Counted from the first letter of the stretch, positions 1 to 42,000 are shown. The stretch is 64,000 bases of DNA from an uncultured Planctomycetia bacterium (GCA_964409365.1 CAYPCX010000002.1:96984-160983), one strand, 5' to 3'. Notes: generated from the sequence alone by a model not told the origin. Translations and numbers: made by a program.

Positions 1-50
1 ACAGCACGCTAAGCCTGCGGCCCGCGACCGATAACCTGGCTGATTTCATA

Positions 51-18000: not shown

Positions 18001-21000
18001 TGGCCGCTGCCTGGTATACCACGATCGCGGGCCAGTACACGAATGTATGGCACGCGCACGAGCCCGACTGTGACGTTGATGACGACGGCAACATGGACCT
18101 CGGCATAGAGGATATAGACGGGGACGGGGAGTTCGACCTCACGGAGGACCTCAACGCCGACAACAATTTTGATACAGGCGAGGATATCGATCACGACGGT
18201 AATTTTGATACGGGCGAGGACACCGACCACGACGGCGAGCTTGACGGCGGCGAGGACCTTGACGGTGATGGTGAGCTCGACCTCACCGAGGACCTTGACG
18301 GCGACGGGAACTTCGATATCACGGATGAGGAGGCGCTGGCCGCTGCCTGGTATACCACGGTCGCCGGTCAGTATACGAATGTGTGGTACGCGCACGAGCC
18401 CGACTGCGACATAGATGACGATGGTCATATGGACCTCGGCATAGAGGATATAGACTCGGACGGTAGGTTCGACACGACGAACGAGGATATAAGCTCGGAC
18501 GGTATAATGCAGTCCACCGAGGACCTCGACGGTGACGAGAACTTCGATATCGTGGATGAAGAAGCGCTGGCCAGGGCGGGGTACACCACGGCCGGCGGCT
18601 CTTACACCACCGTCTGGATCGCGCACGAAAGCGGCTGCGACCCGGACAATGACGGCCGCATGGACCTCGGTATAGAGGATATAGATAATGATTCGAACTT
18701 CGATGAGGTGTTCGAGGACCTCGACCTTGACAGGCATTTTGACAGCGCGAACGAGGATATTGACGAGGATACCACGTTCGACGAATTCAACGAACTGGCG
18801 ATAGCGGGCGCCGGTTACACGACGCTGAGCAACGATTTCACCACTGTCTGGCACGCTCATGAGCCTGATTGCGACCTGGATGACGACGGTTACATGGACA
18901 GGGGAGAGGACAAGAACGCCAACGGCGCCTTCGAGCTGGACGAAGACATCGACAACGACGGCCACCTCGACGTGAACGAGGACATTGACGGAGACGGCCG
19001 CCTTGACGTCGACGAGGATATTAACGGCAACGGCGTGCTGGACAGTTTCGTCGACTTCTATACCGAAGCCACGGGTATATACACGACGTTCACCGACCTT
19101 ACCTGGGACGCGGGCGACCTGGAAAGCATACAGGAGGCAAGAAGGGTCATCTTCGACGGCCTTGACAGGCTGGTCGTCATTTACGACATCATAGACCCGG
19201 CACAGCAGGCCCAGAGGGATAACGTGGATTCGTTCATCGATTACGGTGAGGACCTCCTCGAAACGCTGGGTGATGACGCGCGGGATATCTATATCTCGGA
19301 AGCCCAGGACAATAACGACGCGCTCTTCGATGAAGTGGAAGAGATTTACTCCGCGGCGGTCGCTTTTCTTGACAGGAGCTACACGGATATTACCATGGCC
19401 CGGGAGATGAGAAAAGCCGCCCTTGACGCGGTAGACCAGATCCTCATGCTCGAGAACCTGCCGAGCCTGGGAGCTTCATACAGTACGTTCAAGGAGACCG
19501 CCGCCGGTTACAGGCATGACCTGGAAGAGAGGCTCGATGACATAGAAGACGTCATAGACGCCACCCTTGAGAACAAAGCGGGTACGTACTACCAGGATAA
19601 GATGACCGAGTATAATGACCTTCTCCTCCAGCTGCGCGAGAAGAAACAGGAATACGAAGAAAAATACGCCAACAAGGCGGACGACACGCTGTACAAGCTC
19701 CTGAAGAGGCTGGAACAGGCGTCCGGCCTTATACTTTCCGACGCCGAAGGTACGAGCGCGGTCGCCGCGATCGCCGCCAGTGAGGAAGAATACGGCCTGG
19801 TCCAGCTCCTGGAAGGCGTATACCTGCAGGAGACCAAGGTCGCGGCCTGCGATGACCTCATAAGCGCCGAGATCGAGGTAGCCAGGTCGATATTGAGGGG
19901 CGAAGACGTAGACGATGACAACGTCCTGGATGTTGACGAGAAAGCCCTGGCTGAAGCGGGATACACTACGCAGGGCGGCAGCGGCGAATATACGACAGTA
20001 TGGATCGCGCACGATCCGGGTTGCGACATGGATGACGACGGGCACATGGATAAAGAGGAAGACCTCGACGGTGACGGTGAGATAGACAGCTTCATGGACC
20101 TCCTGGACCAGAACCCGGATATGACCGCCCTTGTCGACCAGATTGAAGGATGCGCGCAGGCATCTGAATATGCCCTGACAAAAGCCCAGGCCATATCGCT
20201 GGGTAATCCTAATAATGAGCACCTGAAGAATAAGGTAAGTGCCCTCGCGCGGGAAGTGGCCGATCTCAGGAACGCGGCCGATCTCATGAAGGAAGTCCAG
20301 ACGGTCGTGGAAAATACCGCGCGCGTGGACGACCTTTCCGACGCCATAGACGTTTACGAGTCGTTCATGACAACTACGGTCACGAAAGCCGCCACAGCGG
20401 ACGATACCGACAAGGAAGCGTATCTCTCGGCGCTTGATATGGCGGAAGAGGGCCTGGAAGAAGCCCAGGATACCGTCCTGAGCGATTCCATGGAGGCCAG
20501 CGACGCGACCGACCAGATCGTGGTGATAGCCAGCGCTATCAACGAATATGTGGGACTCTTCGATTCGTTATTCACCTCGCAGGACCTGGCCGACATGGTG
20601 AACTTTGTCAGGGGAAGGGCCTCGGCGGCCGTTATAAGCGCCCAAAGCGCCTCTTCTAGGGCTATAGAGTATACCCTTGACCCGGACGCGGCGGAGACCG
20701 AAGAGCTTGAGGCATGGGGCGACCTTCTGAACGCCAGGTCCGATATATCGACCAGCTGGGACGCGTATGAACAGGACACCGGAGACCCTGTCCTGGCGCT
20801 CGATGATTACGCGGAAGCCGTCCTGGATTATGAGGAAGCTTTCTATACCATCCACTCGGCGAGGCCCGGCACTTCCGATTACACGACCGCGATGAACGAT
20901 ATCGCCGGCCTTGTCAGCCAGGAAAGGAATTTGGCGAAGGAACTCGCCAATATCCAGGAGACACTGACGCAGGGCATCCTCCCGGTCCTGAGAGAGGAGT

Positions 21001-24000
21001 ATAACGAGTTGTACGCGGCCCTGGCGGAGGGGGATGAGCTCCTTGAGAAGGAGAGAGCACAGAGGCTGGAGCTCCTTTCCCTGGAAAGCGCCCTCGAACG
21101 CGCGGAGAACAGGGTGGTGATACTCGAGGCCAAGGAAGAAGCCGCCGAAAAGGCGCAGGAAGACCTGCAGGAGGCGCTCAACAAGATGGTACAGCTTTAC
21201 CGGGAGGCGACAGCGGCTTCCAAGGAACTCGAGAAAGCTGTCACGCTGGGCGGCGATACGGGGTATGAATACAGCGGCGGTATAACTTCCGAGGATGACA
21301 GGTGGGAAGCCAATGTCGTTTACTGGTCTTATGTCCTGGACAACGCGCTGGAATCCAGCCCGATAGACAGGAACGCGGAGGCCGCCAGTGATTTCTCCGA
21401 CCTCGCCAGCCAGCTCGTGACCATCGCCGACGCCGCCATCCAGCAGGCCCAGCTTTTACAGGTGGAGGTCAATAACGCCCAGGCGGAATATACCGAGGTC
21501 CGCCAGGAACTTGACAGCGCCCAGCTTGATATGGAGAACCTGCGTATCGATACCTCCGAGGCGAAGATGCAGTACAGCGCTATAGAAGACGCTATTTCCA
21601 GCGCCGAGGCGATAACGTTGAAGCAGTTCGTGAAATGCCAGGAACTCATGAGCGAGTACTGGGACACCTATCTTGACTATGAATTTGCATGGAACAGCTG
21701 GTGGGGCACGAAGCGCGAACTAAACCAGAAACAGGCGCTTGTGACCGAGGACGTGGCCAAAGAAGAAAAACTCCGGGCGAGGAGCGATGCCGAGCAGGAT
21801 ATGGACGACGCCTGGGAAGCCTATGATATCTTCAAGGCCCAGGCCGATATGGAGAACCCGGCGGATGTCGCCCAACTGGAAATTTATTATAACGAATACC
21901 TGGCCAAGAAAGCGATATGGCAGGCGGCCGGCCGTGATTATGATAATTATATAGCGGCCAGGGAAGATGACGCTGACCTGGAGGATAAACTGGAGGCGCT
22001 CGACGCCGCGTACAGCACGATGACCAATGCTTTGGACACGCACCAGGATCGCAACCAGAACTTCACGTCCGACCTTAATAACACCGCGGGTCTCAGGAAG
22101 GACTACCTTACCCTCAAGGAAAGGGCGCGCGAGATAAGGGAGGAGTACAACGCTCGCCAGAACGCCGGCGCGATGGCCGACGATACCGCTACCGCCCTCG
22201 CCGAGATCACCACCGACGCGGACGCCGTTATCGCCGTGATGAATGACACCGCCGATTTCATAAGCGACAAGCTCGGCCAGATGCGGCAGATATCTTCGGA
22301 AGTCACGGAGATCGCCAATGCCAGCGATGACAGCGCCGGCCTCAGCATGCCGTCCTATGTCAGGGATTCATACAGCAAGGTCCAGTACACCGAACAGATA
22401 GTTGCTTCCTATGAGGCGAAGGTGTATGAGCAGATGCAGGTCGTGGCGGAAGCCTACAGCGCCATGGAACAGAAGAGGAAGGACATGCTCGACGCGGAGA
22501 TCTACGTGAAGGTGACCGAAGCGGAGCTGGACAAGGCCATAGATGAAAGCAGGGACGAGACCGGCAAGGCTAACATGAACGACCCGCGGGTCAAGAACGC
22601 GGAAAGCATACTGGAGCAGGCCCAGGAGGATTACAGCGACGCCCGGGAAGCGTTCGAGGATGCAGAGACGGCCTACGAAGAAGCTTTGGACGAATATAAT
22701 TGCAGATTGGCAGACCTGGAAGTCGCTTACGGCGACTTAAGCGGCGATCCCGATGCCGACGACGACTGGATAGAGTGGGATCCGGAAACTTCACCCAGGG
22801 ACCGATTCGGTTACGGCACCGGCGGCGCTCTGGCGGACTGCCTGGCGTCTTTTGATCCCGACTGGTGGTGGGGTGACCACAGGCCGGACCTGTACGGGAC
22901 CTATACGGACGGGACGACCCCGTGGAACACGTATGTGAAGGACGAGGATTTCCCGTGGGACAAGGAGTGGCTGGACGACCAGAAGAAAGAGAGATACATG
23001 CAGTGGAAGAAGGCCCTGGACGTCAGGTACGCTTACCAGGTCAGCGAACGCAATTACGAGACCGTGAAGAACATGGCGCTCGTCGATTACGCGCGTTCGG
23101 TGGATGACGCTGTCAGCGTGGTCGAAGGAGTAAGATCCGATCTCGAATCGGCTCTCGCGGATTACCGCCAGGCGATAGAGGAAGAGGTCCTGGCCAGGAA
23201 CCGCTTGGAACGCTTGACCAAGGTGATAACCGAAGGGGATTTCACGGGCGCGGGGACCGAAGGCGCGATATTCCTGGCCGAGCTCAACAGCCAGAAAGAC
23301 GCGGCCCAGGAAGCGGTGGACGAGGCAAAGAAGAGAGTGGACATCCTTGAAGAATATATCATAGGGCAGGGAGGGCTCGAAGATGTTTATAACGAGACGC
23401 AGGACAGGCTCTTCGAAGAAGCGCGGGATTATTGCCTGGACGCCACGTTCTTCGACGAATGGCTCGATCCGGAAAGCCTCTCCGACGGCATGTTCGAGGA
23501 CCTGAAGTCCCTTGTCGGCCAGGTCTTTGACCGCGATACCGAAGGCGATATGTCCAGCGCAGCGGCCGAAGTGATGAAGATGGTCTACAAGGCGGAAGGG
23601 GTCGCCCTGAAACTGCAGGAGATCATACACGCGAAGGTGACCGGAGCGGAAGCAAAGTCCACCGTGCAGGCCATAACCTCGCAGCTGAACGACCTGAAGG
23701 ACGGCATCAATTCCGCATGCGCCGCGTTCGTGAATTTCTGTTCCACCATGGAAATCGAGTACGATTCCGCCAGGGCGGAATGGGAAGCGGTTAAAGATGT
23801 GGGCGATGAGGGCGACGCCGACATAAGCGACATGGAAGACAAACTCGCCAAACGCTCCAAATACCTGATAATGAAAGGCGTGAACGATTTTGGCCAGGAA
23901 GCCAAGATCTACATGGAACAGATCGAGGAAAAGCTTAAAGGCTCCGATCCCAACGCCGTTATTAACCGTCTGGACGAGCTCATGCAGATACTGGCGAAAG

Positions 24001-27000
24001 TCGGCGCTGAGGACGTGGAAAAGGATGAAATATACGCCTGCGTGGTCGATACCGGAGAGATACTGAACCGCATAAACGAGAGTACCGGGAGCATTGGGAA
24101 ACTGTACGGGCATTCCCAGCGCACGCTGTATTCCATGGCCGGCGTCATAAGCGCGGGAGCGGTATCCAACAGTTATGGCTACTCCCTGATAAAAGAAGCT
24201 ATCGCCAAAGCGAACGGCCAGCCCGTGGACATCATCGAATTCAAGAACAACCTGCCCGAGGGGTGGTACAAGTATTACGACCTGTGGTCGGATTACGCCA
24301 TAGAATGCATGGCGGAAGATCTCGGCGAAGAGCTGGTAGAGTTCGGCAGCGAGCTGTACGCGCGCGCGGCGGCCGATGCCGCGGACAAATGGGAGTATAT
24401 CACGGAACTCGAGACGAGCAAGAGGAACCTCTACTCCAAACGTGAGAGGGTGAATAACCAGATCAACACGATAGAGATACAGCTTGAAAAGGCCATCGAG
24501 GAATATGAGGAGGCCTGTGAGGCCTGGGTCCAGAGCGGCGATGAAGAGGGAGACCGTTCTTCCGCCCTCGAGATAAGGATGTTGAGCCGCAGGTTCGATA
24601 AGGAACGCCTGGAGGAAAGGCTCGAAGAGCAGGAGAGGGCCCTTGAAGTCCTCGGCGAGATACCCGGGATGGGTGGCCACCTTGACGAGATAGTCGAGAT
24701 GCTGGGCGGTAAGTCCGGCGAGCCGAAGGAGTGGACCACTAAATATACTACCGGGACGCGGGAGGAATGGCTTGACGATTTCCGCGAAACGACCATGGAA
24801 AACGGTAAACTGATAAGAGGTGATTGGTATTACTGTTATGACGCGGAAGACGAACAGTACAGGATCGCCGGTGACATGGGCGGCGGGTTTGACGGGGCCT
24901 GGGAAGATTACATGACCGCGTTCGAACGGTCCAAGAACGTCAGGATAGATGTGATAGGGTTCAAGGTCGAAAAGACGGCCACCATTTACGATACCGAAGA
25001 AACGCTTGTCGAGCCCAACACCGACGACATCGCTTTCACGGAGAACCCGCGCCAGGGCGATCCGATAGATTACGTCATATCCTTTGAGGATAACCGCATA
25101 ACGAATATATGGAGGACGGAAGAGGTAGCCGGGGAGAAGGTGGTCATCGAGCAGCCGGCCACACCCAAAGACGATAAATTCAGGGTATGGCTGGTGAGCG
25201 ACGGTACCGATAACGTCATATGGAAGGGCGAATGGGACACGGATTCGCAGATGTACGAGAACTATAGCACCGGGGTCGCGATAAGCCATACGGTCGATCT
25301 CTCTTATGAAGGCGAGATGTACATGGCGAGTTTCAAGACCGGTGAGTACAAGACCCTGGCCGAAAGGGTGGGGTCGCTCTCCAACGAGCTGTATCACATG
25401 CTCGGCGAGGTCGTCGGTAGTACTGAATATGAAAAAGCCGCCTCAGACGTATCCCTCAGGACACGTTCGGTCAACAACGGCCTGATAAAGCTGAGGGCGA
25501 AAATAGAGGACGCCGATTCAAGGAACGACGATTACGTGTCAGCCTCCGACCAGGCGGCCCTCAAGAAGGCCCTCACCGACAGCCTGCTCGCCGTCCAGAA
25601 CCGCGAGGATTTTTATAACGCCCTGGGAAGAGGCGCCACCGATGACGAGACGATACAGATCCTCCATACGCGGGTCGAGAGGTACGAGGAATTGATGGAA
25701 GAGCTGGCCGCGGACGTGGAAGACACCAAAACGTTCAGCCAGAATTCCACTATTATCGGCCTTATAGAGGACCTTGCTTTCATGGCGAAAGCGGCGAATG
25801 ACAAGGCCGAAGAGATAGGAGGCGCGGGCGCGGGCGACGCGGTCACGAGGGACGTCTGCGACCTGGCAAGGTCCGTGAGCCTCCTGGAGAAGATACGCCA
25901 GCAGAAGGAGGAGGAATATGACCAGGCGAAGGCGGCCTATGAGAACTATGACAGGGAGACCCAGCTGGAATACCAGCATTACCTGAACCTTGCCAGGGCC
26001 AAAGACGAACTGGCCGAAGAATATGAAGCAAGGATAGGCGAGACCGGACGGCAGCTCGGCGTGTATATCGGATCGAGCAATGCTGATTATATCAGCAGTA
26101 CCCAGGACGTCGAAGGGCTGAAAGAGCTCCTCCTCGATGATGACAGTTTGAAGGTCGTCGTGACCGAAGGTATATTCGGCCATATGCTCAAGCAGCATAC
26201 TAATGCAGAGGAGGAGATGGAACGCCTGGAAGAGGCCGTTCAGCAGAAGAGCGGCGAACTTGACGCCCTGCTCGGGGCGATGGACTGGAGCGACTCCGGG
26301 ATGCGGGTGGACCTGCTGAAAGCGAGGAAAGAATACGAGGATACGAAACTCGCGTTCAACGAGGCGGACAGGATAATGGAAGAACTGGAAGCCGAAAAGG
26401 AAAAGATGGTAAGGGAGATAGATACCATGCTGGATGAGCAGCTCCTCAATATGGAGAACCTTGAACAGGCCATAGAGGATTCAGCCAGCGCTAAAGAAAC
26501 GGCAGAGAACCTTGATCCCGAAGCGGGCCTCGATCCCGAAAAGAAAGCCAGCCTGGAGAAAGCCCTGGATACGGCCAAATATGAGCTGGATGAGGCGAGA
26601 GAGGACTGGAAGAACGCCCTTATCGCTTTTATAGACTTTACCGAACCGGGCGGCGGCATCCAGGGCTTTACCGAGACGGAAACGGCGATAGTGGACATAT
26701 ACAAGCCGCAGCTTCTCGACAGCATAGTGACCCCGCGCGTGATCGCCACGGATAAATCGACGGCCGAGACGAACGCGCTTATCGAGTTCGCCAATGCTTA
26801 TAAAGTAGAGGCCGAGGGCGAGGAAGGTGCGAGCTATTACCTTGACGACGACATGGAACGAATGGTTACCATGCAGCTGGAAGCGATGTATGATTCATCC
26901 AGCGACATCGCCGATATCGTGGACATACTCAATACTTCCGGGTACGGTAGCGCTATTTCAGGCACGATAGCGGATAAGGTCCAGGCGTTTGAGGAGGCCC

Positions 27001-30000
27001 TCGGGAACGACCTGCCCGAGGTATGGGCGGCGCTCCAGCCGGACGGGGAAGGTATCGTTCCCGGCAGATCCGTGCTGAACCTTGACGAGACACGGCTGCC
27101 GGATATCGTGCTGGAGGCGGGCGAGATGGAAGACGCGCTCCGGCTTGTTTCCGAGGTGTCCAGCGACCTTTCGATAGAAGAGTTCGGCGCGCAGGACACG
27201 CAGACCACCAGTATCATGGACATGCTGGACAAGAAGGGCCTGGCCCTGCCCAACACCCTGGTCGGGATAGCCGCCGAGGCGGATGCCCTTACCGATAAAT
27301 ACGGTTATGCCAGTGATATGGACCTTGCCCGCAAACATTTCAAGGAACTCGAGGACCTCGCCCAGGCGGCCCGCGAACTTGCGCTCATGGTCATACATAC
27401 GCCGGTAAGCGCCGAACTTGCCGATATCTCGGAAGAACTTGCGGATATCAGGCAGCGCGCCCAGGACGCGCACTACACGACCTGCGCGTATCTCGACCTG
27501 ATACCCGACGCGTCCAGCTATTCCGGTCCGAGAGATTCCCTTAAGAACGCGGCCGATATCGCGAAAAACCGCGCCATGGGCGCCGTGGATATACTTACGG
27601 AGATCCTGGTTTCGCTGACCGAACCGCTTTCGGTAGGGGAGTACGGGGCTATCTCGAAGACCAGGACTTACAGCCACGGCCGGCTTGTGGAAGAAGCCGT
27701 GTATGACGGGATAAAAGGCAAGGAAAAGGAACTGGCCTCGGTGAAATACTATACCGGGACGACGGACGTGGAAAGCATCACCACCTCGGAATATACCACG
27801 CACGGTGTGCTTCAGGAGCAGACAAGATACCGCCGGGATTACTTTATACCAGAGGCCGAGATCGAATACCTGACGACACCGGACATTAAACAGTACCGCG
27901 GCAGGGAACTGCCTGTGAAGACCACGACATATTATGATGACGGCACCACTACGGAAAGCATTACCGCTTACTTCTACGACCAGCTCACGCGGGGCCTTAC
28001 GCAGACCCAGAACGTGAGGTATGACGAGATCTCCAACGGTCCCGAGCTGGGCAGTTTTACGGTAGCCAGTTTCACCGACGCGTTCTACCAGCCCGAGGAA
28101 CCCGGAAGGGGCAGGCTGGACCGCACCGCTACTTACGACCTGGGCGAGGGCGACTGGCTTATTTCCACCGATTCCACGGTAGCGGCGCCGTCGGAAGACC
28201 TCTTGTTGACCGAGGAGATATATCATTACAGCGCGCCGAACGTCGATGAGAGTCTGCAGGCCCTGGAGGGGCTCTTCGTCAAGGAAAGGCTCCAGAGGAA
28301 AGAGACCCACACCTTCATGCTTGACGGGAGCGAAGAGATAGGCGATACCTTCTACAGCGGTTTCCGCGGGTTCGAAAAAGCCGAGAGAACGGCGGGATAT
28401 ATCCCGGGGACCACCACTCCGAAAACGCAGACCAGTTACGAATACGGTTCGGCCATGCGGGACCTGTACCAGACGACGAGCGTCGACTTAAGGAGCAATA
28501 TCACGCGGACGTCCATATTCGTAGGGTATGAGGGCGAGGAGAAAGTGGAAACGGTAAAAGAGTTCCGCGAGAGCGCCCAGACAGACCCGGATACGGGCAA
28601 GCCCCTGGAAGAACTGGACAGGATCACGAGAAATTACTACTCCACTGACGGCCGGCTTCTGCGCAGGACGGTGGACCGTTACACGCCTTACGGCAGCCAC
28701 CTCTTCGGCAAGAAACCCGTCACCAGGACGATCTATGAATACGGCGGAGAGATCGGCCACGAGAGGATAATGAAAGAGACCGATGACAGGGGAGTAGTCC
28801 ACTATTACAGGTATTTCATGGATGATGACAAAGGCCTCATAACGGCGATCGCTACCAACCCCGAAAAGTTCGAGACGGGAGCCCTGCCCGACTTCGACAC
28901 CCAGGTGCTTTCCAGGGACCTCGTCTATGCCGTCTACCAGGACCCGAACTATATACCCACGTCCGAAGGGACGGTGGTGTTCACCAACAGGGACGGCAAT
29001 ACCATCATGATGGTCGACCAGTACGGCACCGTGCAGAAGTTCGACTACCTGACCGACGCAGACGGCATCGTCTACGACGGACGCGGCAGGATACAGGAGA
29101 CTTACGTGTACCTGCCGGACGGCACCAAGATCACCAAAGGCCCCGACGGGTTCAAGATAGCCGAAGAAAGGCGTGATACCCGCGGCAACCTGATAACCAT
29201 GACTTACAAGTATGACAGGGACGGCGACGGTGAGGCGGACGAGAACGATTGCGGGGAAGATGTCATTACCGACGAGTACGGCAACGCGGACCTCATGGTG
29301 ATAACCTGGACGGATTATATTTACGAGAAGGTCACCGACGATACGGAAGTCACCATCCAGGTCGACCATGAGCAGGTCTACAAGTACGGTATGCTCTACA
29401 TGCAGAAAGCCGTGAGGAAGGACCAGGAAGACTGGCATTCCAGGTGGGTCAAACGGTCCGACGGCGTGTGGGAGCTCCGTTTCGCTAGAAATGAGGCGGA
29501 TATAGAGGATCCGGAATCGTTCACCCTTGAAGTGGACTCGGAGACCGGCGCCATAATAAGCGCCAGGACCTGGGTAGATGAAGAGGATGAAGAAAAGGGC
29601 ACGCAGGAGAGCCGGGTAGAGCTCACGCCGGCCCAGTACGGCGGCGGTAACTACGATTTCTTCGCCAAGAAGGTCGAAGGCATTTGCGGCGGCCAGGACG
29701 GCTATGTTGTCTATGTCTACAAAGGCGAGAGCCTGAACGACAAGTCGATCTACCTCGGCATGAGGGTGATGTACCCGATAGAAGCGGACGGCACTATCGG
29801 CAACATCTACGAACTTATTGACCGCGTCGCCGGGACCGTAAGCGAGTGGAAGGACGAAGAAGGCAGGGATAAAGAACTGAAGATAGGCAACGACCCAGGC
29901 CAGAGCGAATATTACATTTTTACCCGGGCGCCGAAAACCGAGAAAGAACTTATTTATTACAGCCAGAGGGAGGACATGGACTTCCAGCTTGAAGGCGGGA

Positions 30001-33000
30001 TGGTGACGCTCGATGACGGCACTGTCGTGGAACGGGAGGCCCTGGAAGAAGCCATAAGCATGATCCAGGACGGCTTCATGACACTGGAAGCGGAAGTGCA
30101 GAACGCCAGGCTCTACAGGGATGAGCAGATCGGCGAAATTATCAGTAGTCTTGTTACCGAGACCCTGCAGCCCGAGATCGAGAAGGAGAACCGCGGCAAG
30201 AGGAAGATCACCTACACCTGGCAGTTCAACAAGGGCGGGGCCTCGACAGCCACCCAAAAAGCAACAGGCGGTGTGCTTGGCGGCAACGCGGGCGAAGTTC
30301 TTCAATGTCCGGCTTTTCCGGAGGGGACCGGAGAAAGTGGGACCGGGGGATATAATCCCAATTGGATGGTTTGGCAAGGCCTTACGACAGGTACTGTCAT
30401 GTCGGCTGTGGGGGTCTCACTGACTACGATGGATATCATGAATGCTGCTACTTTCCCGGCGGATTTCAGCCCGGTCTACCCGACGCATGACTGGTGGCCT
30501 AAGGGAAACAGTATCGAGATAGACGAAGAAGGCAACGTCGCCGGTGGCACGCTATACAGGTATGGAGCCACCGAAACGATAAAAGGGGACGAGATAGACC
30601 TCACCGAGTACAAGAACTGGCTGACGGCGCTGGAAGATTACGCGAGCGGACAGTTATGGGAAGACGTCTCGGAATATGTCGACTGGGCGGCCTACTTCAA
30701 GAGGAAGATGGCGGAGCTGAACGAGTCGGAAGATGAAAGGGAGAAAAGGCTCGCTGAAGGCAAGAGCCTTGAGGTGGAACCGCTGGAAGAGGACGAGCTC
30801 AGTTACAAAACGGAAGACGTTTTCGACGGGCGGGATGACATAATGGGTTTCGTGAACTGGCTCGTCGCTCGCGGAAGGCTTTCGGGGGTCCTCCTTGATT
30901 CCATGGTAGAACAGCTTGCCGGCGGATACCAACCGGTGCTCGATGATGAAGGGGATTATATCTGGGAAGAAGAGGATTATACGGACAGTAATGGGAACGG
31001 GACATACGATCCGGGCGAGCCTTTCGTGGATACGAACGGCAACGGCCGGCCCGATGTCGACGAAGACCTGAACGATAACCATAAACTTGACGATAACGAG
31101 ATCGATCATAACGGTGACGGTGAGCTGACCAGAGGATATAAGGTAAGGCGAGAACATATCGATCCTTATTATAAAGGCGATGTGGAAGTCCTCAACTGGA
31201 TAGAAGGCCTGGAGGGACAGCTCTCTGAGGCATTTGAGGAGATAGCCCGGATCTATATCGAGTACGAGGAAGAAAAACGCGAGATGATCTATGACTTCCT
31301 GTATTCGGACGCGTTGAGGCCCCTGTCGGAAAAGGACGACGGCAACAGCGATAACGACCCCGGCGATACGCTGAGACCGATATTCACAAAAGACCTCTTG
31401 ACCACGATCCTTGGAGGGGACGGCCAACAGGTAGAAGATCAGGATTACCTTGATGAAGGCCTTGCGTATTATAACTACCTGGTGACGCAGATGAAGGACC
31501 AGGCCAATTTTGTGATCAATACAAGGCTGGGCAGCGAGTACAGCAGGAAGGCCTCCGTCACGGGTTCTTACGCGCCCAAGGAAACGCCGGAAGAAGAGAA
31601 AGAGGCCGGGGAAGAGGAACTGGAACCGTCACCGGCGCCTGTGTGGATACCCGGCCAGATCGAATCGACGTCGACGCCGGAAGACGAGGAAGAAGACGAA
31701 GAGGAAGACGAGGCGATCAAGCGTCTTAAAGAATGGCTGGCGAGTATTGGCTATTTTGACGACGAGAACGGGGATGTCGATGAAGATGAAAAGAAAGGGT
31801 TTACCCCGGGAACACTTCAGCATTACATGTATGCTCTCCAGAAGATTTTCTGGGATTTCGAGGCATCACGACAGCAGCTGGCCGAAGACATCAGGAGGAA
31901 AGAGCTCTGGTTGGACGGATCATTTGATGAGAACGGTAACCTTGCGGGGGCCGACGATACCGAGTTCCAGGAGAACGTGATATTCCCGGTTGGTTATGAC
32001 GCCGATACCTATCTCGAAAATTACATAAAGAACGGTTTCTGGGACCAGGGCCAGATCAGCATCGAACCCGGCGAGAACCAGGCCCTTAACCAGGCCGAGG
32101 CGGCGAGCGCGGAAGCCCTCGAAACGGGCCTCATCGATATTTTTGAGGACTTCATGGCCACGAGGCCCACGGACGGCTCGCCATGGAAGGCGTTCGAATC
32201 AGAAAAGCTCGAACACCTGAGAGAGTACCTGACAAAGGCCGAACTTTACATGCGCGGCACCCTCGGTCTTGATCCGGAGCTTAACCGGCGCGAGTGGCAG
32301 CCCGGCGACTGGGACAGTTTCATAGACGAGGCCAAGGTGCCGGAGTTCTATACCGATTACGGCGACCAGAAGACCAACCTAGCCGCGTACGCCACGTTCA
32401 AGTACGTGGAACTGACCCTCGCGTTCCTCGAGACGCTGGACCAGACGCGCGAGCAGTATGACCTGCCGAACATGGCCAGGAGCCTTATAAACGAGATCAG
32501 GCAGTACAGCCCGCAGTCCGATAAGGGTTCGGAGGAAAGGGACGAGGCTCTCCAGGAACAGGGCCTGTACCCGGACAAGAACAACCCGTACGAGTATGAA
32601 AGCCTGGCGTCGTGGAAGGAAGACGTACTGGAGAGGCTTTACAACTTCCTGGACGATCCCGACCAGGCCAAGGACCCGCAATACGCGCTCGCGGAGGTCA
32701 TACACGAGGCGGCCACGCTTAAGCTGGAACTCGCCAAGGAAGAGATAGAGCGCATACAGATCAGGAAGATGCAGGAATATGAAAAGCTTTACAGCGATTT
32801 CTACAGCAACGTCTACAGCCCCGCCAAGTACGCGGTCCTGGATATGACCGAGGAGAACACCTGGCAGCCCAGGACAGAGATAGTGAAACTCAAGAAAGTG
32901 GAAGACGGCGAGCTTTATCAGTCAGGCAAGCATTTCATACTTAAGGGGAACGCCGATGTGGAGGACGGTGTAGGGGAAGCGTCCTCGGCCGGCGGCAGTT

Positions 33001-36000
33001 ACGACATCAACATAAACCAGTGCGTCGGTTTCAGTTTGACGGATGAATATGGCACCGAAAGTTACCAGCCCCAGGAGCGGAACGGCCATCTCTATGTCTG
33101 GATACTCGGGGATGAATATAAGCTTCTCTCGGTGTCTTCCGGAGAGCTCACGGACGATGAGAAGAAGAAGGACATGGGATGCAACGAGTATGAAGAGCTG
33201 CCCCTCTACGTCGGCAAACTGCACGACGAAGCTTACATGGAGCTTACTTACCTTAGAAGTGACGAGGCCAGCCGGAACGTGTTCGACCTGCGGGAAGAAG
33301 AGCTTTACAGGGAATACGCCGCCGAGATAGGCATGGGCGGCAGCGCGCTCGCCAGGCTCTATACGTTGATCGAGAAATTCTACGCCAAACGTCTCTTGGA
33401 GAACGCGGAGAGTTTTGAAGGCGGCCTTATAAGCGAAGAAGAGTTCATCCGGAACATCCTCAGGATCAAGTCCTACCGCGAGAGCTACAGGGAGCTTGTC
33501 GATAATTACCTCCTGGGCACGTCCGAGAAAATAGACCTCGAGAACCTCGTTGAAGAAGGTATAAGCGTACCCGGGCTTAACCTCGCGGATGAGGAAACCA
33601 AGGACAGGCTGTACGGCATACTGGAAGACGCCGTGACCTACATGTCCGAGCAGGAGAAGAGGGAGTTCCTGAGGGGCAAAGAGCTTACCAGTCTTCTCCA
33701 GAAGTTCGATTCCCTCTTTGAGGTCATGCTGGAGATGTACGAAGGGGCTATATATAACAACAGGTATGTCGCCGGCGAGGACGGGGCCGCGGGGCTTTGG
33801 AACCTCAAGAACGATATTTTCAGCGGTAGCCATATTATCGCGATCGATGACGCGCTGAACCTTATGCTCAATGAAGAGCAGGCGTGCAGGACGGAGTACC
33901 TTAACAGCGTACAGAACGTCAGGGGCGAGTTCGTGGAAGCTCTCGGTGAAGCCGCCGGCCAGATAGGCGGTACGGGTGCGAGGATCACTTCTTTCTTCGA
34001 TCTCGAGTCTTGGGTGCCGGATGATGATGACCTGGAAAAGTTCAAAAAAGCCGTCACGCCCGACGCCGAAGGGAACAACGATGTTGCCGAAATACTCGGT
34101 GAAGCGATCCTCAAGAAACTCGTCGGCGATGACGAGACGATAACGAAATACTGGGAGAACGACAGCGTTATGAACCAGCTCGGAGCGGGCCTTTCACAGT
34201 ATATAGCCTGGGCGAACTGGAAACTGTCTACAGCCCCCGCGGGCACTTGGAGCGGCCAGAGCCTGGTGGACTCGAAGTTCATGAGGTATTCCTGCGCCAT
34301 GGAACTGATCCAGATGATGATAACCGATTTCACCTGTGAAGCGGGCCTGAACTTCGAGAACGCGGAAGGCGACTACGTGAGGAACTGGTTCGAAAGGTAC
34401 GGCCCCGAGCAGCACCTGAGCAATTTCGCGTATAACGATATCGATCCGGAGCTGCGCAACGCCGAAGTGGGCCGCAAGGTGATAGAGTCCTTTACCGGGG
34501 ACGCCTTCCTGCAGGGCGTGACGGAGATGGAGACCGAGATACAGACCGCTCTGGCGGAGATCATAGGCTACAATGTCGGGAGCTGCGATTACAGGGAATA
34601 CCAGACCGATCCGGGTGAGGCCGGATATAACTTCAGCGTGGTCGGCGAGGACCGTTATCACGACTACCAGGGCAACCTGGCAAAGAAGACCCAGGAGATA
34701 AACGACAAGGCTTTCCTCATGGTGGGCAACGACTCCAACGATACCGATCCGGAGAAAGACAGGGACTCCCTGATCGGGCATCTTGAAGGAGAAGGCACGC
34801 TGATATCAAGCTACAATTCCGCGGTGGAAAGCGCGATAGAGTCGTTCTCCGCCGGGATACCGGAACTGGTGCAGACGGTCGATAATATGACGCTCCAGAT
34901 GCCCGGCGGTGGCGCCGTGTATTGGGACAATATCTGGGGTACGAGAGAACCCAGGTCCCACCAGTACGATCTTAACGAGGTAAGCGACGTCGATTATTCC
35001 GAATTCGATATACGGGCGAAATACAGCGACCAGATCAAGGCTTTCCAGAGCACGGTCACGACGGCGAACAACGAATTCATGAACGGCCTCATGACACTCC
35101 TGTTCGTTTCGGGCGCCGAAAGCAAGGGTGAAATAGACTGGGGTGATCTGGACGGCTTCAGGGGCACGGTCCAGCCCAACGAAAGGTACGATACTGAAGG
35201 CAATATAAGCGCCCTCCGGGAAGATGTCCTGGGTGTCATGATAACGCAGAAGGATTTCTTCGAGGAAGCCGTGACCGAGACACGTGACACTTACGAGTAC
35301 GGCATGCCCGGCACCACCTGGTCGGATGTCCAAAGCGGCCTCGGGTTCGGCAGGATGTGGACGCACCTTTACGGCAAGGACAAGTTCCTGCAGTATTACG
35401 AGCCTGACTACACCAATTTCACCAACGACAAGACCTATGACGCGCTCGAGAGGACGGGCATGAGCTACATAATGGCCATCGGCATGCTGGGCGAGAACTC
35501 GTCCGGCGAGAAGGTCACGCAGAATATCGCCTGGCAGAGCTGGGAAGCCTACCGCAAGGAGGATATGCTCGGCGACGTGGAGCATGCCTATATGGTAAGC
35601 AGCCTTTCCGACGGTGTCAAGCAGTGGCTGATGGACGAGGAGGGCGAGCGCCTGCAGGAAAAGGCCTTTACCGGCACGAGCGAGGTAAGCTACGAGACCT
35701 ACGACATCCTCGAGCATTACATGGATAAGACGCCTCAGGGCATGCGGGGTGGCCACCAGAAGATGGAGCTTCGCGCGGACCTCATGCGGCCGCAGCTCAT
35801 AAGGTCATGGAGCGATGTGGGCCTGGAGATCTTTACGCGTGCCATCGACGCGGCGCTGTATGCTGTCTGGAGCGGGAAAGAATGGGTCCTGATGCCCATA
35901 GGCGGCATAATCTCTTACGATGAGCTGACGGGCCTGACAATAGACAGGGTGTTCCACGAAGACGGCACGACGCTCGATACAATGAAGCATCTCATCGAGA

Positions 36001-39000
36001 CCACCGAGTTCGAGTCCGCGCTCCGCGAGATGGGCATCTTCGGCATAGCGCTCCTGAGCGGCCTGGACGTAGGCGCGGTAATAGGAGGGACACCGGTAAC
36101 GCGCGAGATCTCATCTCGCAGCAAAGACTCGAAAGAGAAAGAAAGCGAGCGCCTCTCGATGCTGGATGTGAAGCAGCAGGTATCCGCGCGGGACCTGGCA
36201 AAAGCAGTGCGCCTGACAGGGAAGAGCAGGCCGGCCACATCTGAAGATGTAGGTGCACGGGGAGGCGACGAACCCGGGCCCGGAGGCCTCGGTTTTCGCC
36301 TTACGGAAGGGCTGAAATACAAGCGTCCCGGAGGAGAACGCGCCGCAGAAGAAATGCCCGCGGAATACAGGAAGTACATGGGCAGTCTGACCGCCGGAGC
36401 GGCAAGCGTTGAACAGGGCTTCCTGGCGGAACTCGCCATGGACCCGGCCACGCTGGAAAAGAAAATGAGAAAGATAAGGGACGCTTTCGCGGGCGCGACG
36501 GTGTACGCCGCGATCGCCGGAGCGGCGTACAGGATAGGCGCATACGTGATGTCGGAATTTGACAAGAAAAGGATCGCTTATAGGAACAAATTAAAGCAAG
36601 AGAAAGCCCGGCGGGAACGGGCAAGCTTCCTGGACAGGATAGCGATGAAGGTCATGCAGCTCATAGAAGAAAGCAAAGAGAGGAACCAACAAGCAAAAAG
36701 GAGGGAATTAATAGCCAAAGGTATTACTGACGAAGAGGTGATCAAGAAAGAACTTGCAAAGGTCAAGGCTGACCCCGGCGCCTATACTTTTGACCGTACC
36801 AAGGGAATATATCGCATCCAGCCGACGGAAGATATCGAGGAGGCGATCAAGGAGCTGGATAAGGGATCCGCCACGGAAACGGTCCGGGAAACTCAGGCCG
36901 AAGAGCCCGTTGAACCCGGTATCTTTTCCGCGGTCGCGAAAGCTTTGCGTAAGGCCTTGGAGAGCATAACCGAGAAACTGATGGACCTGGTAGTCCCGTT
37001 ATGGGAAGCCGCTCCCATCAAGGTAGGGGAATTCCCGGCCAAACGTTTCATAGAGATGGCAGTGGGAGTGCCGCTCTCGTTCCTGGAAGGCCTTTCCAAG
37101 ATGACGGAGGTCCTGGAAAGGGTCAAGATAAGCACGGCGTTGGACAGGGAAACAGCTCTCCCGGAGAAGACTAAACTCGACGAATGGGGCGAAGAGTATG
37201 AGGTCGATATCCCCGATGCCCGCGACGTAGGAGAACGTGCCCGGGTCACGACGGAGATCGAAACGGAAGCCGGGAAAGTGACCGTTACGTTCGCCGGGAT
37301 AGAGGCGCAGGACGGCCTCGCGAAGACTACCGAGATCACCAGGAAGAACGCCGAGGTCGGGAAAGCGGTAGGAGCGGTGGAAGGTGAAGAGGGCTACATA
37401 TTCACGAGCATGATCATAGAAAAAGCCAGCAAGGACGGCGAGGTCAAGAGATACGTCCTGGATGTCCGGGGGTTCATACCGGCAGGGGACGTGGAGAGAA
37501 CGGGCGCGTTGAGCCTGGAAATGAATATGAAGGATAAACTGGTGAAAGAGATCGGGTCCTGGCTGAGTTCGGCCCAGAAGGCAGAAGGCGATGTCAGGGA
37601 AGGAGGAGCGGGCGAAGCGGGCGGCGGAGATGAAGCCAAGGCGACTGAACAGGAACTGATCAGGGACGTAGAAGCGATCTCGAATATCCTCTCCGGTATG
37701 CGCGTCAAGGGGAAGGTCGACATCATGACGGGCAAATTCGCGTTCAGGGTCGATATTGCCGAAGAAGGGGCGCGTGTTACCGGGGTGGGGATCAGAAAGG
37801 CGGCCGGGACGCCGATCGTGTTCGTACCGCTCGTAAGATCGATCGATCTTGCCAGCAGGGGAGATATGGACTCGCTGGAAAAAGCTCTCGGCGCGTTGCA
37901 GGATTTCTCTGCTACTAAAGACTTTGATGCGTTACTGGGAGGAAAAGGAACCAAAGACAAAGACGTTGTAAAAGCGGCAGAGAAGCTCCTGGACATATTT
38001 GCCGAGTTTGGCCTCGGTTCCGCCAAAGTCTGGCTGAAAGACCTTGGCGTTGTCCTGGAATCCCAGCTTTCCAACAGTAAGACGGTCGAATCATACAGGA
38101 TAACGAAGCCGATAGATATCTTTGCCGCCGATGTGCCGGAATTTCGCGGCGCGGACGTGCCGACTATCTCGATCGACGTCAGCAAGGGAGAACTCGAGAA
38201 AGTGCTTACCGATCTCCGGAAGGATCTCGAGGGTATCGTAAGGGTCGACGAAGGAAAAGTGCAGCTGAATACGGAAGCATGGAATAAGATCGCCAATGAG
38301 CTCGACCGCGAGCTTGCGGTCGAGCTTGGAGTGGGAGATATTGCCGTCAAGCTTGGAATGAGAGCTGGGACCGAAGTGGTCGTTACCGAGGTCCGGGCGG
38401 GAGATGCGGCGGCAAGGTTCAAGGCCGGGGAAAGAGTGATGATCGGCGAGGGCCTGGTGGACCTGGGATGGCTGGTGACCGTGGCTACACGGGCCGATCT
38501 CAGGGCTGAGGGAGCGGCGGGACCGGCGGCTACCCTCATGAGATTAGGGGAAGTGCTGGCCGCTCTCGGGCTTGGCCTGGGCGCGCGCGCGCCTGTCGCC
38601 GAAGTTACGCTGGTGACCCCGGGAGGATTCGAGACGAGGATGCGCGTCCGCTTCGAAGGAGTACGCGGCGACATTAAATTACGCGTCACCCATGTCATGA
38701 CCAAGGCCGGGGAAATGCGTGAGCTTGGCACGGGTATTCAGGTCGCCAGGGGCGCCGAAGGCGACAAGATGCTCACGGGATTGGCGGAAGCGGCCGCTAA
38801 GATAGATTTCCGCGTGGAAGGCAAGTTTGAAGAGACCATCAAAGCGTTACGTATTCTGGGCGAAGCGGGCGTGGAGACGGGCATGTTCGTCGGGAAGACG
38901 CTCGTGGAACTGAAAGGGGAAGGGCTCAAGCCGGTGCCGGTAGCTACGGCGCTCAGGATGGAGGTTGGCGGCGAGACGCGCGTGTTCAGGCTGCCGCAGC

Positions 39001-42000
39001 CCGTGGAAGTGACCGGGGCTAAAGTCGCAGAGATAACAAAGGCCGTTGCCGCCGCGGAAGCGAAGATCCCGGCCGGCGCGGGCGCGGCTCCCGAAATATT
39101 TGCCGCAGTGGCTCCTGTGCTCGCCAGGGAAGCGGGGATAGGTATAGTGGTCGAGGACAAAGGCCTGAGATTGGTTTCTGACGTAACTGATGGTGTAATG
39201 AGGATCTCCGTCTTGGGCCGGTTCCGTCCCTTTAAAGAAGAACGGAAGATCGGCGAGATGGCGATATCCTTGGAAAGCTTGAGAAGGCAGGAACCGGAAG
39301 ATTTTGGCAAAGGATTGTTAAAGGCAATAGCGGGCATTGAAACGATAAGTGCCAGAGTAGTGACGAAGTTGTCTGTTGCAGAAACACCGGGACTGCCGGC
39401 CGAAGGGTTAAGAGAATTAGCGGTGCAATTAAAAGATATACAGGTCGGGGAGGTCAAAGTAGAGATACCCGTGTTGGTCAGGGTTGAAGGCGAAGCTCGC
39501 GTGGGTGTCGTGCAGTTGGTAAGTCAGATCATTGAAGGTGCGCCTGAGATAAGTGTCGGGAAACTGGTGACGGCTGAGGGTGTCGAGCTAACATTTGAGG
39601 GCCTCAAAGTGGTAGAGGACGCCAAGGATCCAATAAGTGCGCATGAAAGAGCGCATATTGATGAGAAAAACCTGATGCAGGGCATCGTTGGCATATTCGA
39701 GAGCGTAGGCAGAGATGTCAAAGAAAACATAACGGGCGACCGCAAGACCCTGGGCACCCTTACCGGTGTCGCCAGGGGATTGATGGAGCTGGGTATTACC
39801 GGCGTGACAGTTACAACTGTGATCGACAGGGTCGAATATAAGATAAAGGCGGCCGCCGAGGAGGTAGAGATCAAGGTCGTGGGTATGTTGGCTAAACCGG
39901 ATGTATCCAGTTTCGTTTTTAAACCTTTCGCTCTTGGCAAGATAATGAAAGACGAACACGGGGAGCTGGTGCTTATGACTCCCGGGGGGAAGGAAGATAC
40001 GCTGCTCGATATGAGGATCGAGAGAGTGATCACGGCCGTCAGGACCATTGCCGCCAGGCCTTCCAAGGATCTTAGGGATATAGCCGGGCAGTTGATGGTC
40101 CTGGTAGCCCTGAGCGGCGAAAGCGTCACGGCGTGGACCCCCGCCGGTGTCAGGGTCAAGGCCGAAATAGAAGGGTCAAAGATAAAGCTTGCCTGGGACG
40201 CCATGAGGCTTGCTTACGGCAAGACGACGACGATAACGCCGGTCAATATACTGGAACTCAGCCTTGACAGGGTCAAGAGACAGATAAGTTACATAGTCGG
40301 GGATTCCATAATAGAAAACGTAAAGAACATGGCGGGGTTCATCGATATTCCCACCGCGGCCGGGATAGAACGGTTCATGAAACTCCTCGCTCCTGTTGCG
40401 GAGAAGATGTTAGAGACGCCCGGGGTCGCGATAGACGCGGGCAGGTTAAGGACCGGTGTGCTCACCATGGGTGAAGGCGAGGACGCCGTCCGCCTCAAGC
40501 TGGAGATAAAAGGCGAAGGTAAAGAATTCGAGGCAACTATAACCGATATAAAGAGGACCAGGGAAGAAAAAGACCTCGATATCAACATTTTCAGCAAGGT
40601 CGAAGCCTGGACGCCGGTCGGTCTCATGGTGGCCGGTAAGGAAGAGGCGATCAAGTTCGCCGATATACTCAAGGTGCGTCCCGAAGAGGTCGGCATAATG
40701 AGAGCTATCGGGATGTGCCAGGCGGGCAAACATGTCGCCTACGATGATCTCGAGAAAGCGTTAAGCGATTTCCACAGGATCATCGAGGACCCGAAGGTCT
40801 CGGCCGGCACCAGGGCCGCCTACATGGCCCTTTCATTGATACATGCGGGCGCCAGCCAGAGTGACATTATCGGTCTTTATAATTACAGCGTCAAGGAAGG
40901 CGATTTAGACAGGCTTCAGGCGGTCGTCCAGCTGTACCAGAGTAATATGACCGAGGAAGCAGACGCGATGACCAGGGGCCGCGGAAAGTTAAGCCTTACC
41001 GAAGAGAGGGTCATTGCCGATATCAAGGTGCAGAGAGCGCGACAGGTCGGCGGCAAACTGCTCTTCATGGCCAAGCATAACGTTAACGATATCAACCAGC
41101 TGGGCGTCTCTGCCGCCGATGTGAAAAGGCTTTACATCATCGGCAAGACGACCGGTAATTACGATAGGTTATACGCTCTTGCCGAGATGATGGGCGCCGT
41201 CGAGATGTGGAAGACGGATATCAACGGTGACCTCGTGGCGTCGGCGGATGATTTCAAGGCGATGGTCAAGGGCGACAAGACCGGGCTCACCATGGCGCAG
41301 AGACAGGTGGTCGGGAAAGTCCGCTTCAAGGTGATGAGCGCCATGCTGCCCGGCGCGTTACTGGAAGACGGAAGAAAGCTGCTTGACGCGTGTAACTTCA
41401 AGGAGGGCGGCTTCACGAAAGAACAGCTCATGAAAGCGGTCAAGAACGATGATCTCGACGCCATGTCCAGGATGGGCGCGGTAATAAGCGGGGTCAGGTT
41501 CGTTGACACCAGGACCGAAAAGGTCAAAGCGTTCGAGGTCAGGAAGACCGACGGCAGGTGGCTGTGCCACATCAAGATGGATTATACCGAAGGCAAGGGC
41601 CTTGAGCTGACCCTTGAGGGCCGGGCGCTCAGCCACCGGGGCATGCTGGACATTACGGTGGATTCTGCCGGGAGGGCGCTGCTTGCCAAAGATCTCACCA
41701 TGCGCGGCGGCGACGAAGGCGAGGAAATAACCCTCCTTGCCGAAAAGACCGTTATAAGTCTCTCCGGAGACTCCACGCTTAATATCCTCCAGGCGGAAGC
41801 CCGCGTCGGTAAATACAAGAAAGCTCATGTGAAAGAATTCGTTTCCATGCCGGCCCCGGCGGCCGCGGGCGTGACCGTTCCCAAACGCACCATCACGAAA
41901 CTCGAACGCGACAAGACAGGCGTGTTCGTCACGGACAGCACCCTGACTATCCGCGAGAACCAGTTCATACAGACGCCGGGCCAGGTATTCCAGCTCGGGG

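Follow-up and report, generated by a model that had tools for sequence, protein, structure and literature searches.

The window analysed here, a 64,000-nucleotide stretch deposited as DNA of an uncultured Planctomycetia bacterium (GCA_964409365.1, CAYPCX010000002.1:96984-160983), contains a giant open reading frame (ORF), recognised by ORF listing and translation, in the middle of which lies a block with motifs like the YD repeats of the shells of Rhs proteins, teneurins and Tc toxins:

51..55961, plus strand: giant ORF of 18,636 amino acids (aa), containing the block
27640-30050, plus strand, in the frame of the giant ORF: the block, giant ORF aa ~9,197-10,000

A sequence-only reading of this DNA had described the block as an Rhs/YD-like shell segment lying mid-protein, not near the end, on the basis of four motif strings (RGNLITMTYKYDRDGDG, YYSTDGRLLRRTVDRYTPYG, VYDGRGRIQETYVYLPDGT and TIYEYGGEIG...HYYRYFMDDDKGLITAI). 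All four strings are present in the plus-strand frame of the giant ORF, at aa ~9,197-10,000, and the position is likewise confirmed, the block starting ~9,200 residues into the giant ORF and being followed by ~8,600 more. By self-BLAST the block is unique: neither the giant protein nor the ORF after it has a paralogous copy. No in-frame stop codon was read between the first base of the window and the ATG at position 51, and no signal peptide is seen at the N-terminus (MYLGGEFYRYRDEDG...); the giant ORF may therefore begin before the window, whose edge would then cut off its 5' end and make the figure of 9,200 residues a lower bound. There is also no obvious ribosome-binding site in window positions 1-53.

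Strict YD-type patterns ([YF]x[YF][DNST], Y[DNST]xxG and G[RNKH][LIV]xxx[TSVI]) show an enrichment of ~5-fold (range ~3-7) in the block relative to the remainder of the giant protein, and with just 3-5 instances of each, such motif counts alone are weak, modest evidence. Conservation, in contrast, is strong evidence that the block is a module beyond any chance pattern. A word-index search returned two homologues (48% and 42% identity), and HMMER, run exhaustively with the profile of a trimmed alignment against 1.84 billion representative proteins (E≤1e-3), returned 15 proteins in total, 11 of which (P0001-P0010 and P0012) carry the module or part of it. In an 11-sequence alignment of the module (A3), identity to the block of the window is 30-52% over ~850 aa. 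The word-index search with the 11-sequence profile found P0001 and P0002 only, and nothing further.

The named homologues of the block are all proteins of Candidatus Omnitrophota metagenome-assembled genomes (MAGs), with the exception of one fragment labelled Babeliales, and a locus search of GTDB species genomes with alignment A2 gave two loci, both from Candidatus Omnitrophota. The exceptional fragment, P0002, is encoded on a 1.6-kb contig labelled Candidatus Babeliales; the Omnitrophota origin of all other named homologues suggests that this label results from mis-binning.

The giant protein is colinear with P0003 (over giant protein aa 6421-12138), P0004 (aa 4123-11195), P0006 (aa 9193-11843) and P0009 (aa 9712-11930), and this colinearity over thousands of residues indicates that the block is one module within a long conserved backbone. 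The ~2,000 aa downstream of the block are conserved and colinear in the same four proteins (28-37% identity, comparable to that of the block itself), and no polymorphic toxin cargo was met directly C-terminal to the block, where the sequence is conserved, not variable. P0004 is named 'S8 family serine peptidase', by which name at least one homologous giant has a protease domain; no such domain was detected in the protein of the window. The colinearity with P0003, P0006 and P0009 ends at approximately aa 11843-12138, and these fragments run on for thousands of residues more. Near aa 12,000 of the giant protein there is a sharp switch in composition (window ~36000-55961), in which Tyr falls from 5-7% to 0.2-2.4% and both Lys and Gly increase.

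The structure of the block was predicted with AlphaFold2. A 3-sequence alignment gave an unusable model (predicted local distance difference test score, pLDDT, of 35.7), and the 11-sequence alignment gave a model with a mean pLDDT of 65.7 and a predicted template modelling score (pTM) of 0.42, the parts of which are as follows:

Block residues 15-420, pLDDT ~75-90: long hairpins
Block residues 458-640, pLDDT ~60-85: shorter hairpins, then long strands
Block residues 640-800, pLDDT low: beta-rich, fold not resolved by the model
Block residues 815-860, pLDDT up to ~70: long helix

Residues 15-420 are modelled as 25 Tyr-ended strands (mean length 9.5 aa) connected by turns of 2-6 residues, with no domain breaks; typical turns are YDDGTT, STDGR, DDRGV, MLDGS and TTHGV, commonly of the Y..D-x-G type. 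The strands are made up of 14.8% Thr, 11.8% Tyr, 11.8% Glu and 8.4% Arg, a polar and aromatic composition as in single-layer sheets, not alternately hydrophobic as in sandwiches.

Compared with the PDB by Foldseek, the model has 23 matches at E≤1e-3, of which the best 21, without exception, are YD shells (E 1.3e-12 to 1.1e-5, probability 0.82-1.00):

Rhs cores of type VI secretion systems (8qjb, 8qjc, 8qjd, 8qja), Tse15 (8uy4, 8uxt) and Tse5 (8cp6)
Teneurins 2, 3 and 4
TcdB2-TccC3 (4o9x, 6h6g), TcdB1-TccC2 (6l7i) and the BC component of Yersinia entomophaga (4igl_B)
Mosquito SGS1 (8fjp)

The TM-scores of the YD-shell matches are only 0.09-0.16 (root mean square deviation 25-32 Å, identity 9-13%), and therefore the likeness is local and not that of a superimposable cocoon. 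Variants of the OspA single-layer sheet rank next after the YD shells (probability ~0.95), followed lower in the list by propeller, barrel and LptD-type matches at E≥7e-4 only; in the viral model library (BFVD), MORN-repeat proteins are among the fold matches, with low TM-scores. Structure prediction thus gave no unrelated fold, the local resemblance being to YD shells, but neither did it give a closed shell that superimposes on them.

A clue to the make-up of the hairpins comes from P0011 (MDD3906240.1), an Omnitrophota MAG protein of 5,104 aa that matches the block distantly, in 24-29 separate stretches that all fall on block residues ~250-332 (E 3.6e-19). Residues ~600-2450 of P0011 are an array of ~1,850 aa in which a 53-aa unit (..YSGLSGxEKISTVTTFDKSGNILTITSYSYDASGALxSTVTxDSDGVITSE..) is repeated ~33-35 times in tandem and in perfect register, and P0013 has a similar 57-aa unit. 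The regular repeats match MORN_2 above threshold (34 bits, cut-off 29.6) and RHS_repeat below threshold (16.8 and 16.4 bits, cut-off 22, E ~0.01); judged by sequence, the 53-aa hairpin repeat lies in the twilight zone beside YD and MORN repeats. Comparison of this repeat with PDB sequences gave nothing meaningful, and a word-index homologue search with it returned nothing.

In the block, the hallmark Y-x-G-x-x-G-x-E-K has four occurrences (VYDGIKGKEK, FYSGFRGFEK, FVGYEGEEK and YEYGGEIGHER). Alignment of A3 with the 53-aa repeat by hhalign finds three copies (E ~1e-4 each), with weaker ones at block residues 100-127 and 381-424, and the matches of a hidden Markov model (HMM) of the repeat to the whole 18,636-aa protein fall in the block only. 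The hallmark recurrences and the hhalign and repeat-HMM matches make degenerate copies of the hairpin repeat, set at irregular intervals, the best reading of the N-terminal half of the block. The sub-modules and repeat copies along the block, all on the plus strand, are:

27642..28859, plus strand: sub-module A, aa 9198-9603 (block residues 15-420), a ribbon of 25 long strands in the AlphaFold2 model; the best-predicted part, conserved in 10 homologues
27696..27812, plus strand: degenerate repeat-unit copy 1 (VYDGIKGKEKELASVKYY...), by hhalign at block residues 33-71 (E 1e-4) and by HMM at aa 9217-9256
28347..28451, plus strand: degenerate repeat-unit copy 2 (TFYSGFRGFEKAERTAGY...), by hhalign at block residues 250-284 (E 2.3e-4) and by HMM at aa 9433-9467; the stretch matched 24-29 times by P0011
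28512..28673, plus strand: degenerate repeat-unit copy 3 (SIFVGYEGEEKVETVKEF...NYYSTDGRLLRRTV), by hhalign at block residues 305-358 (E 1.3e-4) and by HMM at aa 9488-9506; holds the most YD-like motif of the block
28860..28970, plus strand: linker with a short helix (NPEKFETGALPDFDTQVLSRDLVYAVYQDPNY), helix at block residues 439-446, pLDDT 29-45, with conserved columns in A3
28971..29519, plus strand: sub-module B, aa 9641-9823, shorter hairpins and then three long strands, pLDDT 60-85; bears the x-D-G-x turns NRDGN, DQYGT, LPDGT, GPDGF and DTRGN and two of the quoted motif strings (VYDGRGRIQETYVYLPDGT and RGNLITMTYKYDRDGDG)
29520..29939, plus strand: sub-module C, aa 9824-9963, conserved in A3 and beta-rich (WVKRSDGVWELR, GNYDFFAKK, YVVYVYKG), pLDDT mostly <50
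29940..30179, plus strand: module-end helices, aa 9964-10043, by DSSP a helix at block residues 781-798, two short strands and a long helix at 815-860, pLDDT up to ~70, conserved in A3

Tests for membership of the Rhs/YD family by sequence were negative throughout. Scanned with Pfam and NCBIfam at E≤1, aa 7997-11196 contain no RHS_repeat (PF05593), YD (TIGR01643) or Rhs core (TIGR03696) match, and none of the three was detected at E≤10 in three 300-aa pieces of the block, in P0001 or in P0002; the RHS_repeat profile was present in the library and is reported even when weak, as for the repeats of P0011 (E 0.009). The 11 homologues scanned at E≤10 gave a single RHS_repeat match (E=1.7), regarded as noise. 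NCBIfam scans of the remaining giant protein found neither TIGR03696 nor TIGR01643, and the patterns P....DP.G[LWFIVM], DP.G[LWF] and P....[DE]P.G have no match in the giant ORF or the next ORF. None of the 15 proteins from the exhaustive search is an Rhs, teneurin or Tc protein, and PDB sequences gave no match either to the block by phmmer or to the A3 profile at E≤10. MORN_2 (PF07661) matches neither the block nor its 10 homologues, and no carbohydrate-binding module (CBM) or lectin profile was found in the block.

Two other candidates were set aside. DUF2963 matches 4 of the 11 homologues, in each case below threshold (best E 0.018), and was taken as a hairpin-repeat look-alike. The WD40 proteins P0014 and P0015 weakly match block residues 462-538 (E ~1e-4, in multiple stretches and inflated by repeats); a WD40 propeller at this location was rejected, ~70 residues matching weakly and no WD40 Pfam match being found in the block.

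With no YD or Rhs profile above threshold, the family assignment made in the sequence-only reading is refuted at the level of sequence, whereas its remark that the PxxxxDPxGL Rhs cleavage core is absent applies to the whole giant ORF, by patterns and by TIGR03696 alike. What survives of the shell is its predicted fold, a stack of hairpins with shells as the 21 best PDB matches; family membership does not, no profile having matched and no Rhs protein having been retrieved. Between the two forms that had been proposed, the data are better fitted by an open YD beta-spiral, and a degenerate cargo-carrying shell is unsupported, there being no core or plug, conserved sequence downstream and TM-scores of 0.09-0.16 to closed shells.

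The remainder of the giant protein has features of a known class. Near its N-terminus are Dockerin_1 (E 8.6e-43, in 4 stretches) and EF-hand_7 matches, and DUF4214 is also present. A C39-like peptidase region at aa 4431-4526 (window 13341-13628) is detected slightly below the Pfam cut-off (E 4.6e-4, 20.5 bits, cut-off 22) and by an NCBIfam peptidase-ABC model (E 1.1e-3). An Asp-rich region (20-22% Asp, aa 5501-6500) contains thrombospondin type 3 (TSP3)-like repeats of the type EDLDGDGNFD that look calcium-binding, with no Pfam TSP3 match in the giant protein at E≤0.01. Interleaved with the TSP3-like repeats (window 16968-18650, aa ~5640-6200) is an element, EEALAAxGYTTxAGxYTxxWYAHEPDCDxDDDG, that occurs six times in aa 5766-6269. 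A cluster of six hydrophobic segments is found only at aa 15082-15610 (window 45294-46931), which from sequence is the sole plausible multi-pass membrane region; isolated hydrophobic segments are also found at aa 11994 and 13016, and aa 15001-15500 contain 17.6% Gly. Downstream of the giant gene is another ORF:

56331-64000, plus strand: second large ORF of >2,556 aa, running off the window end

This ORF encodes a SecA DEAD-like domain (SecA_DEAD, E 7.4e-18) at its residues 1423-1765 (approximately nucleotides 60597-61625), together with a weak SecA P-loop match, and thus the SecA-like part is a separate ORF ~370 nucleotides downstream of the giant gene, not fused to it. GC skew and AT skew are positive on the plus strand in all 2-kb bins of window positions 1-64000, the cumulative skew climbing monotonically, and the strand opposite the giant gene has numerous antisense ORFs, of 150-1,142 aa, that are spurious.

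The dockerins, TSP3-like repeats, hydrophobic cluster and SecA-like neighbour together indicate the architecture of the Dockerin-type giants; by its domain content the protein is a Dockerin-type giant protein of Omnitrophota, this origin being read from the named homologues and the two GTDB loci. West-Roberts et al. (2023, 10.1101/2023.11.21.568195) predict an extracellular location for the long N-terminal part of Dockerin-type giants, and a dockerin-bearing class was also recovered in a 2026 preprint. In Archaeovorin- and Dockerin-type giants, 'antiparallel beta-helix' tubules of ~1,500 aa have been predicted, which their authors likened to Rhs repeat proteins, and post-translational cleavage of the giants has been proposed, with a cleavage role for C39-like domains (10.1101/2023.11.21.568195).

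Three known systems invite comparison with the block. The Rhs/YD shells (Tse5, Tse15, TcB-TcC, teneurins and SGS1) share with its model long antiparallel hairpins, Tyr-ended strands and D-x-G turns, they are its best and only top-ranking structural matches in the PDB, and single motifs of the block, such as YYSTDGRLLRRTVD, come close to their consensus. Unlike these shells, the block lacks matches to PF05593 and TIGR01643, an Rhs core and a DPxGL motif, its hairpins are irregularly spaced, its predicted strands are fewer than the larger solved shells need, and it is followed by conserved sequence instead of a variable toxin. The tubules of West-Roberts and colleagues occur in the same protein class and phylum and are likewise unannotated beta regions of antiparallel hairpins; they are long and highly symmetric and bear helix pairs or sheets on the outside at regular intervals, whereas the hairpins of the block cover ~400-600 aa and are irregular and non-periodic. 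The ~1,850-aa array of P0011 is similar in size to the ~1,500-aa tubules and is a candidate for their sequence basis. MORN_2, MORN and OspA proteins resemble the predicted ribbon of the block in having single-layer arrays of antiparallel hairpins with polar or aromatic strands, but the strands of the block are too long for the 22 aa per hairpin of the MORN_2 profile, no MORN profile matches the block, and the fold matches to MORN and OspA (E ~1e-3 to 1e-4) are far weaker than those to Rhs shells (E 1e-12).

Comparative genomics and structure prediction together make it fairly probable that the block is a module nearly restricted to Omnitrophota giants, in which a YD-like hairpin ribbon serves not as an autoproteolytic toxin capsule but, outside the cell, as a rigid scaffold or a segment of an open spiral or tubule that may also bear a binding surface. 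A ribbon of long antiparallel beta-hairpins, its strands rich in Thr, Tyr, Glu and Arg, ended by Tyr and turned by D-x-G, would be formed by the first ~400 residues and would probably extend over the ~180 that follow. This ribbon would consist of degenerate copies of the unit 'Y-x-G-x-x-G-x-E-K...Y-x-Y-D-x-x-G' that is arrayed in P0011 as tandem 53-aa repeats, and structurally it would fall into one class with the 'antiparallel beta-helix' tubules that have been predicted for these giants. The polar strands and the OspA matches suggest that its sheet is single-layered, its geometry would be open, not closed, and an extracellular location is expected by analogy with other Dockerin-type giants. 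The ribbon may act in scaffolding or binding, in that it would provide length and stiffness and offer a large polar and aromatic surface to ligands. The motifs probably look YD-like because the local architecture is that of YD/Rhs shells and, more loosely, of MORN/OspA sheets; since every test for an Rhs-family sequence failed, a structural or binding module is likelier than a toxin capsule.

Several points weigh against this reading. The global geometry is not established, the pTM being 0.42 and the TM-score to every match ≤0.35, and an open ribbon is deduced from the failure to superimpose on shells, not from a confident shape. The alignment behind the model has 11 sequences only, and alignment length has probably inflated the Foldseek E-values where the targets are long and repetitive. 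The hhalign matches to the repeat have probabilities of just 45-57% each, and the repeat-HMM matches in the block are individually non-significant. The topology is only inferred, as a signal peptide is not seen and the ORF is possibly truncated at its 5' end.

The same fold may instead have ligand binding as its main role, with a Tyr-rich, lectin-like surface for the cell-wall glycans of prey or host, an interpretation that overlaps with the scaffold on structure. YD repeats are linked to carbohydrate binding in general, the Tyr (11.8%) and Thr (14.8%) content of the strands would suit such a surface, and the surroundings, with dockerins and TSP3-like repeats, are of the adhesion type. Dockerin-type giants have been assigned to attachment and cell-surface polymer processing (10.1101/2023.11.21.568195). 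However, the block matches neither a CBM nor a lectin profile, nothing in the structural comparisons corresponds to a known carbohydrate-binding site, and the conserved residues, mostly Gly and Asp of turns and Tyr of strand ends, look structural and not like a pocket. Glycan binding as the main role is therefore possible but somewhat unlikely.

It is unlikely, to a slightly greater degree, that the YD resemblance is superficial, the block being a series of unrelated small beta domains (a sandwich, partial propeller or barrel-like fold) and the Foldseek ranking an artefact of a mediocre model. The modest scores of the model (mean pLDDT 65.7 and pTM 0.42, with pLDDT 35.7 from three sequences), the low TM-scores of every match, the weak matches of WD40 proteins to residues 462-538, the propeller and LptD-type matches lower in the Foldseek list and the lack of a YD profile match would all be expected if this were so. 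Nevertheless, residues 15-420, where pLDDT is 75-90, are an unbroken series of long hairpins, the strands are polar and aromatic instead of alternately hydrophobic as in a sandwich, and the 21 best PDB matches share one structural class, well ahead of propellers and barrels (E≥7e-4). The 53-aa repeat, moreover, independently matches RHS_repeat (below threshold) and MORN_2 (above threshold).

A more far-reaching proposal, which is distinctly improbable, is that the block and the 53-aa 'YSGxxGxEK' arrays make up a new branch of the YD/Rhs structural superfamily that lacks the core and winds into an open-ended hollow tube, not a toxin capsule. Such a tube, in a membrane-anchored giant, could connect an Omnitrophota cell, ultra-small and living as a predator or episymbiont, with its prey, acting as a conduit or rigid stalk. 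Least probable of all is a highly diverged true Rhs/YD cocoon that is closed by itself or together with adjoining segments, encloses a cargo segment of the giant protein and is sealed or opened in a non-canonical manner, for example by a C39-like peptidase instead of the Rhs aspartyl core: closed YD shells are the 21 best Foldseek matches in the PDB, a sub-threshold C39-like region is present at aa 4431-4526 and cleavage of the giants has been proposed (10.1101/2023.11.21.568195), but RHS_repeat, YD and Rhs-core profiles do not match, DPxG[LWF] is found nowhere, TM-scores of 0.09-0.16 and deviations of 25-32 Å separate the block from closed shells, its ~25-35 well-predicted strands are few beside solved shells that are far larger (targets of 660-2139 aa), the sequence after it is conserved and colinear, unlike polymorphic toxin cargo, and the search of 1.84 billion representatives returned no Rhs protein.

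The hairpin ribbon without capsule function is accordingly the interpretation preferred here. Hairpin helices that resemble Rhs but lack an Rhs core have already been put forward for Omnitrophota giants in the 2023 preprint, which makes the advance an incremental one. Neither the sequence family formed by the module nor its link to the 53-aa repeat appears to have been described, and the module has no Pfam, NCBIfam or PDB relative. The giants of Omnitrophota are mostly unannotated, and new handles on them are provided by a module of ~850 aa in approximately ten proteins, its link to the 53-aa repeat and a structural class for both. A YD-like architecture is possible without an Rhs core and cargo, which is reason for caution in deducing a toxin capsule from motifs alone. 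Should the ribbon turn out to be a hollow tubule, this would be relevant to the ways in which Omnitrophota cells, which are very small and probably predators, make contact with their hosts and exploit them.

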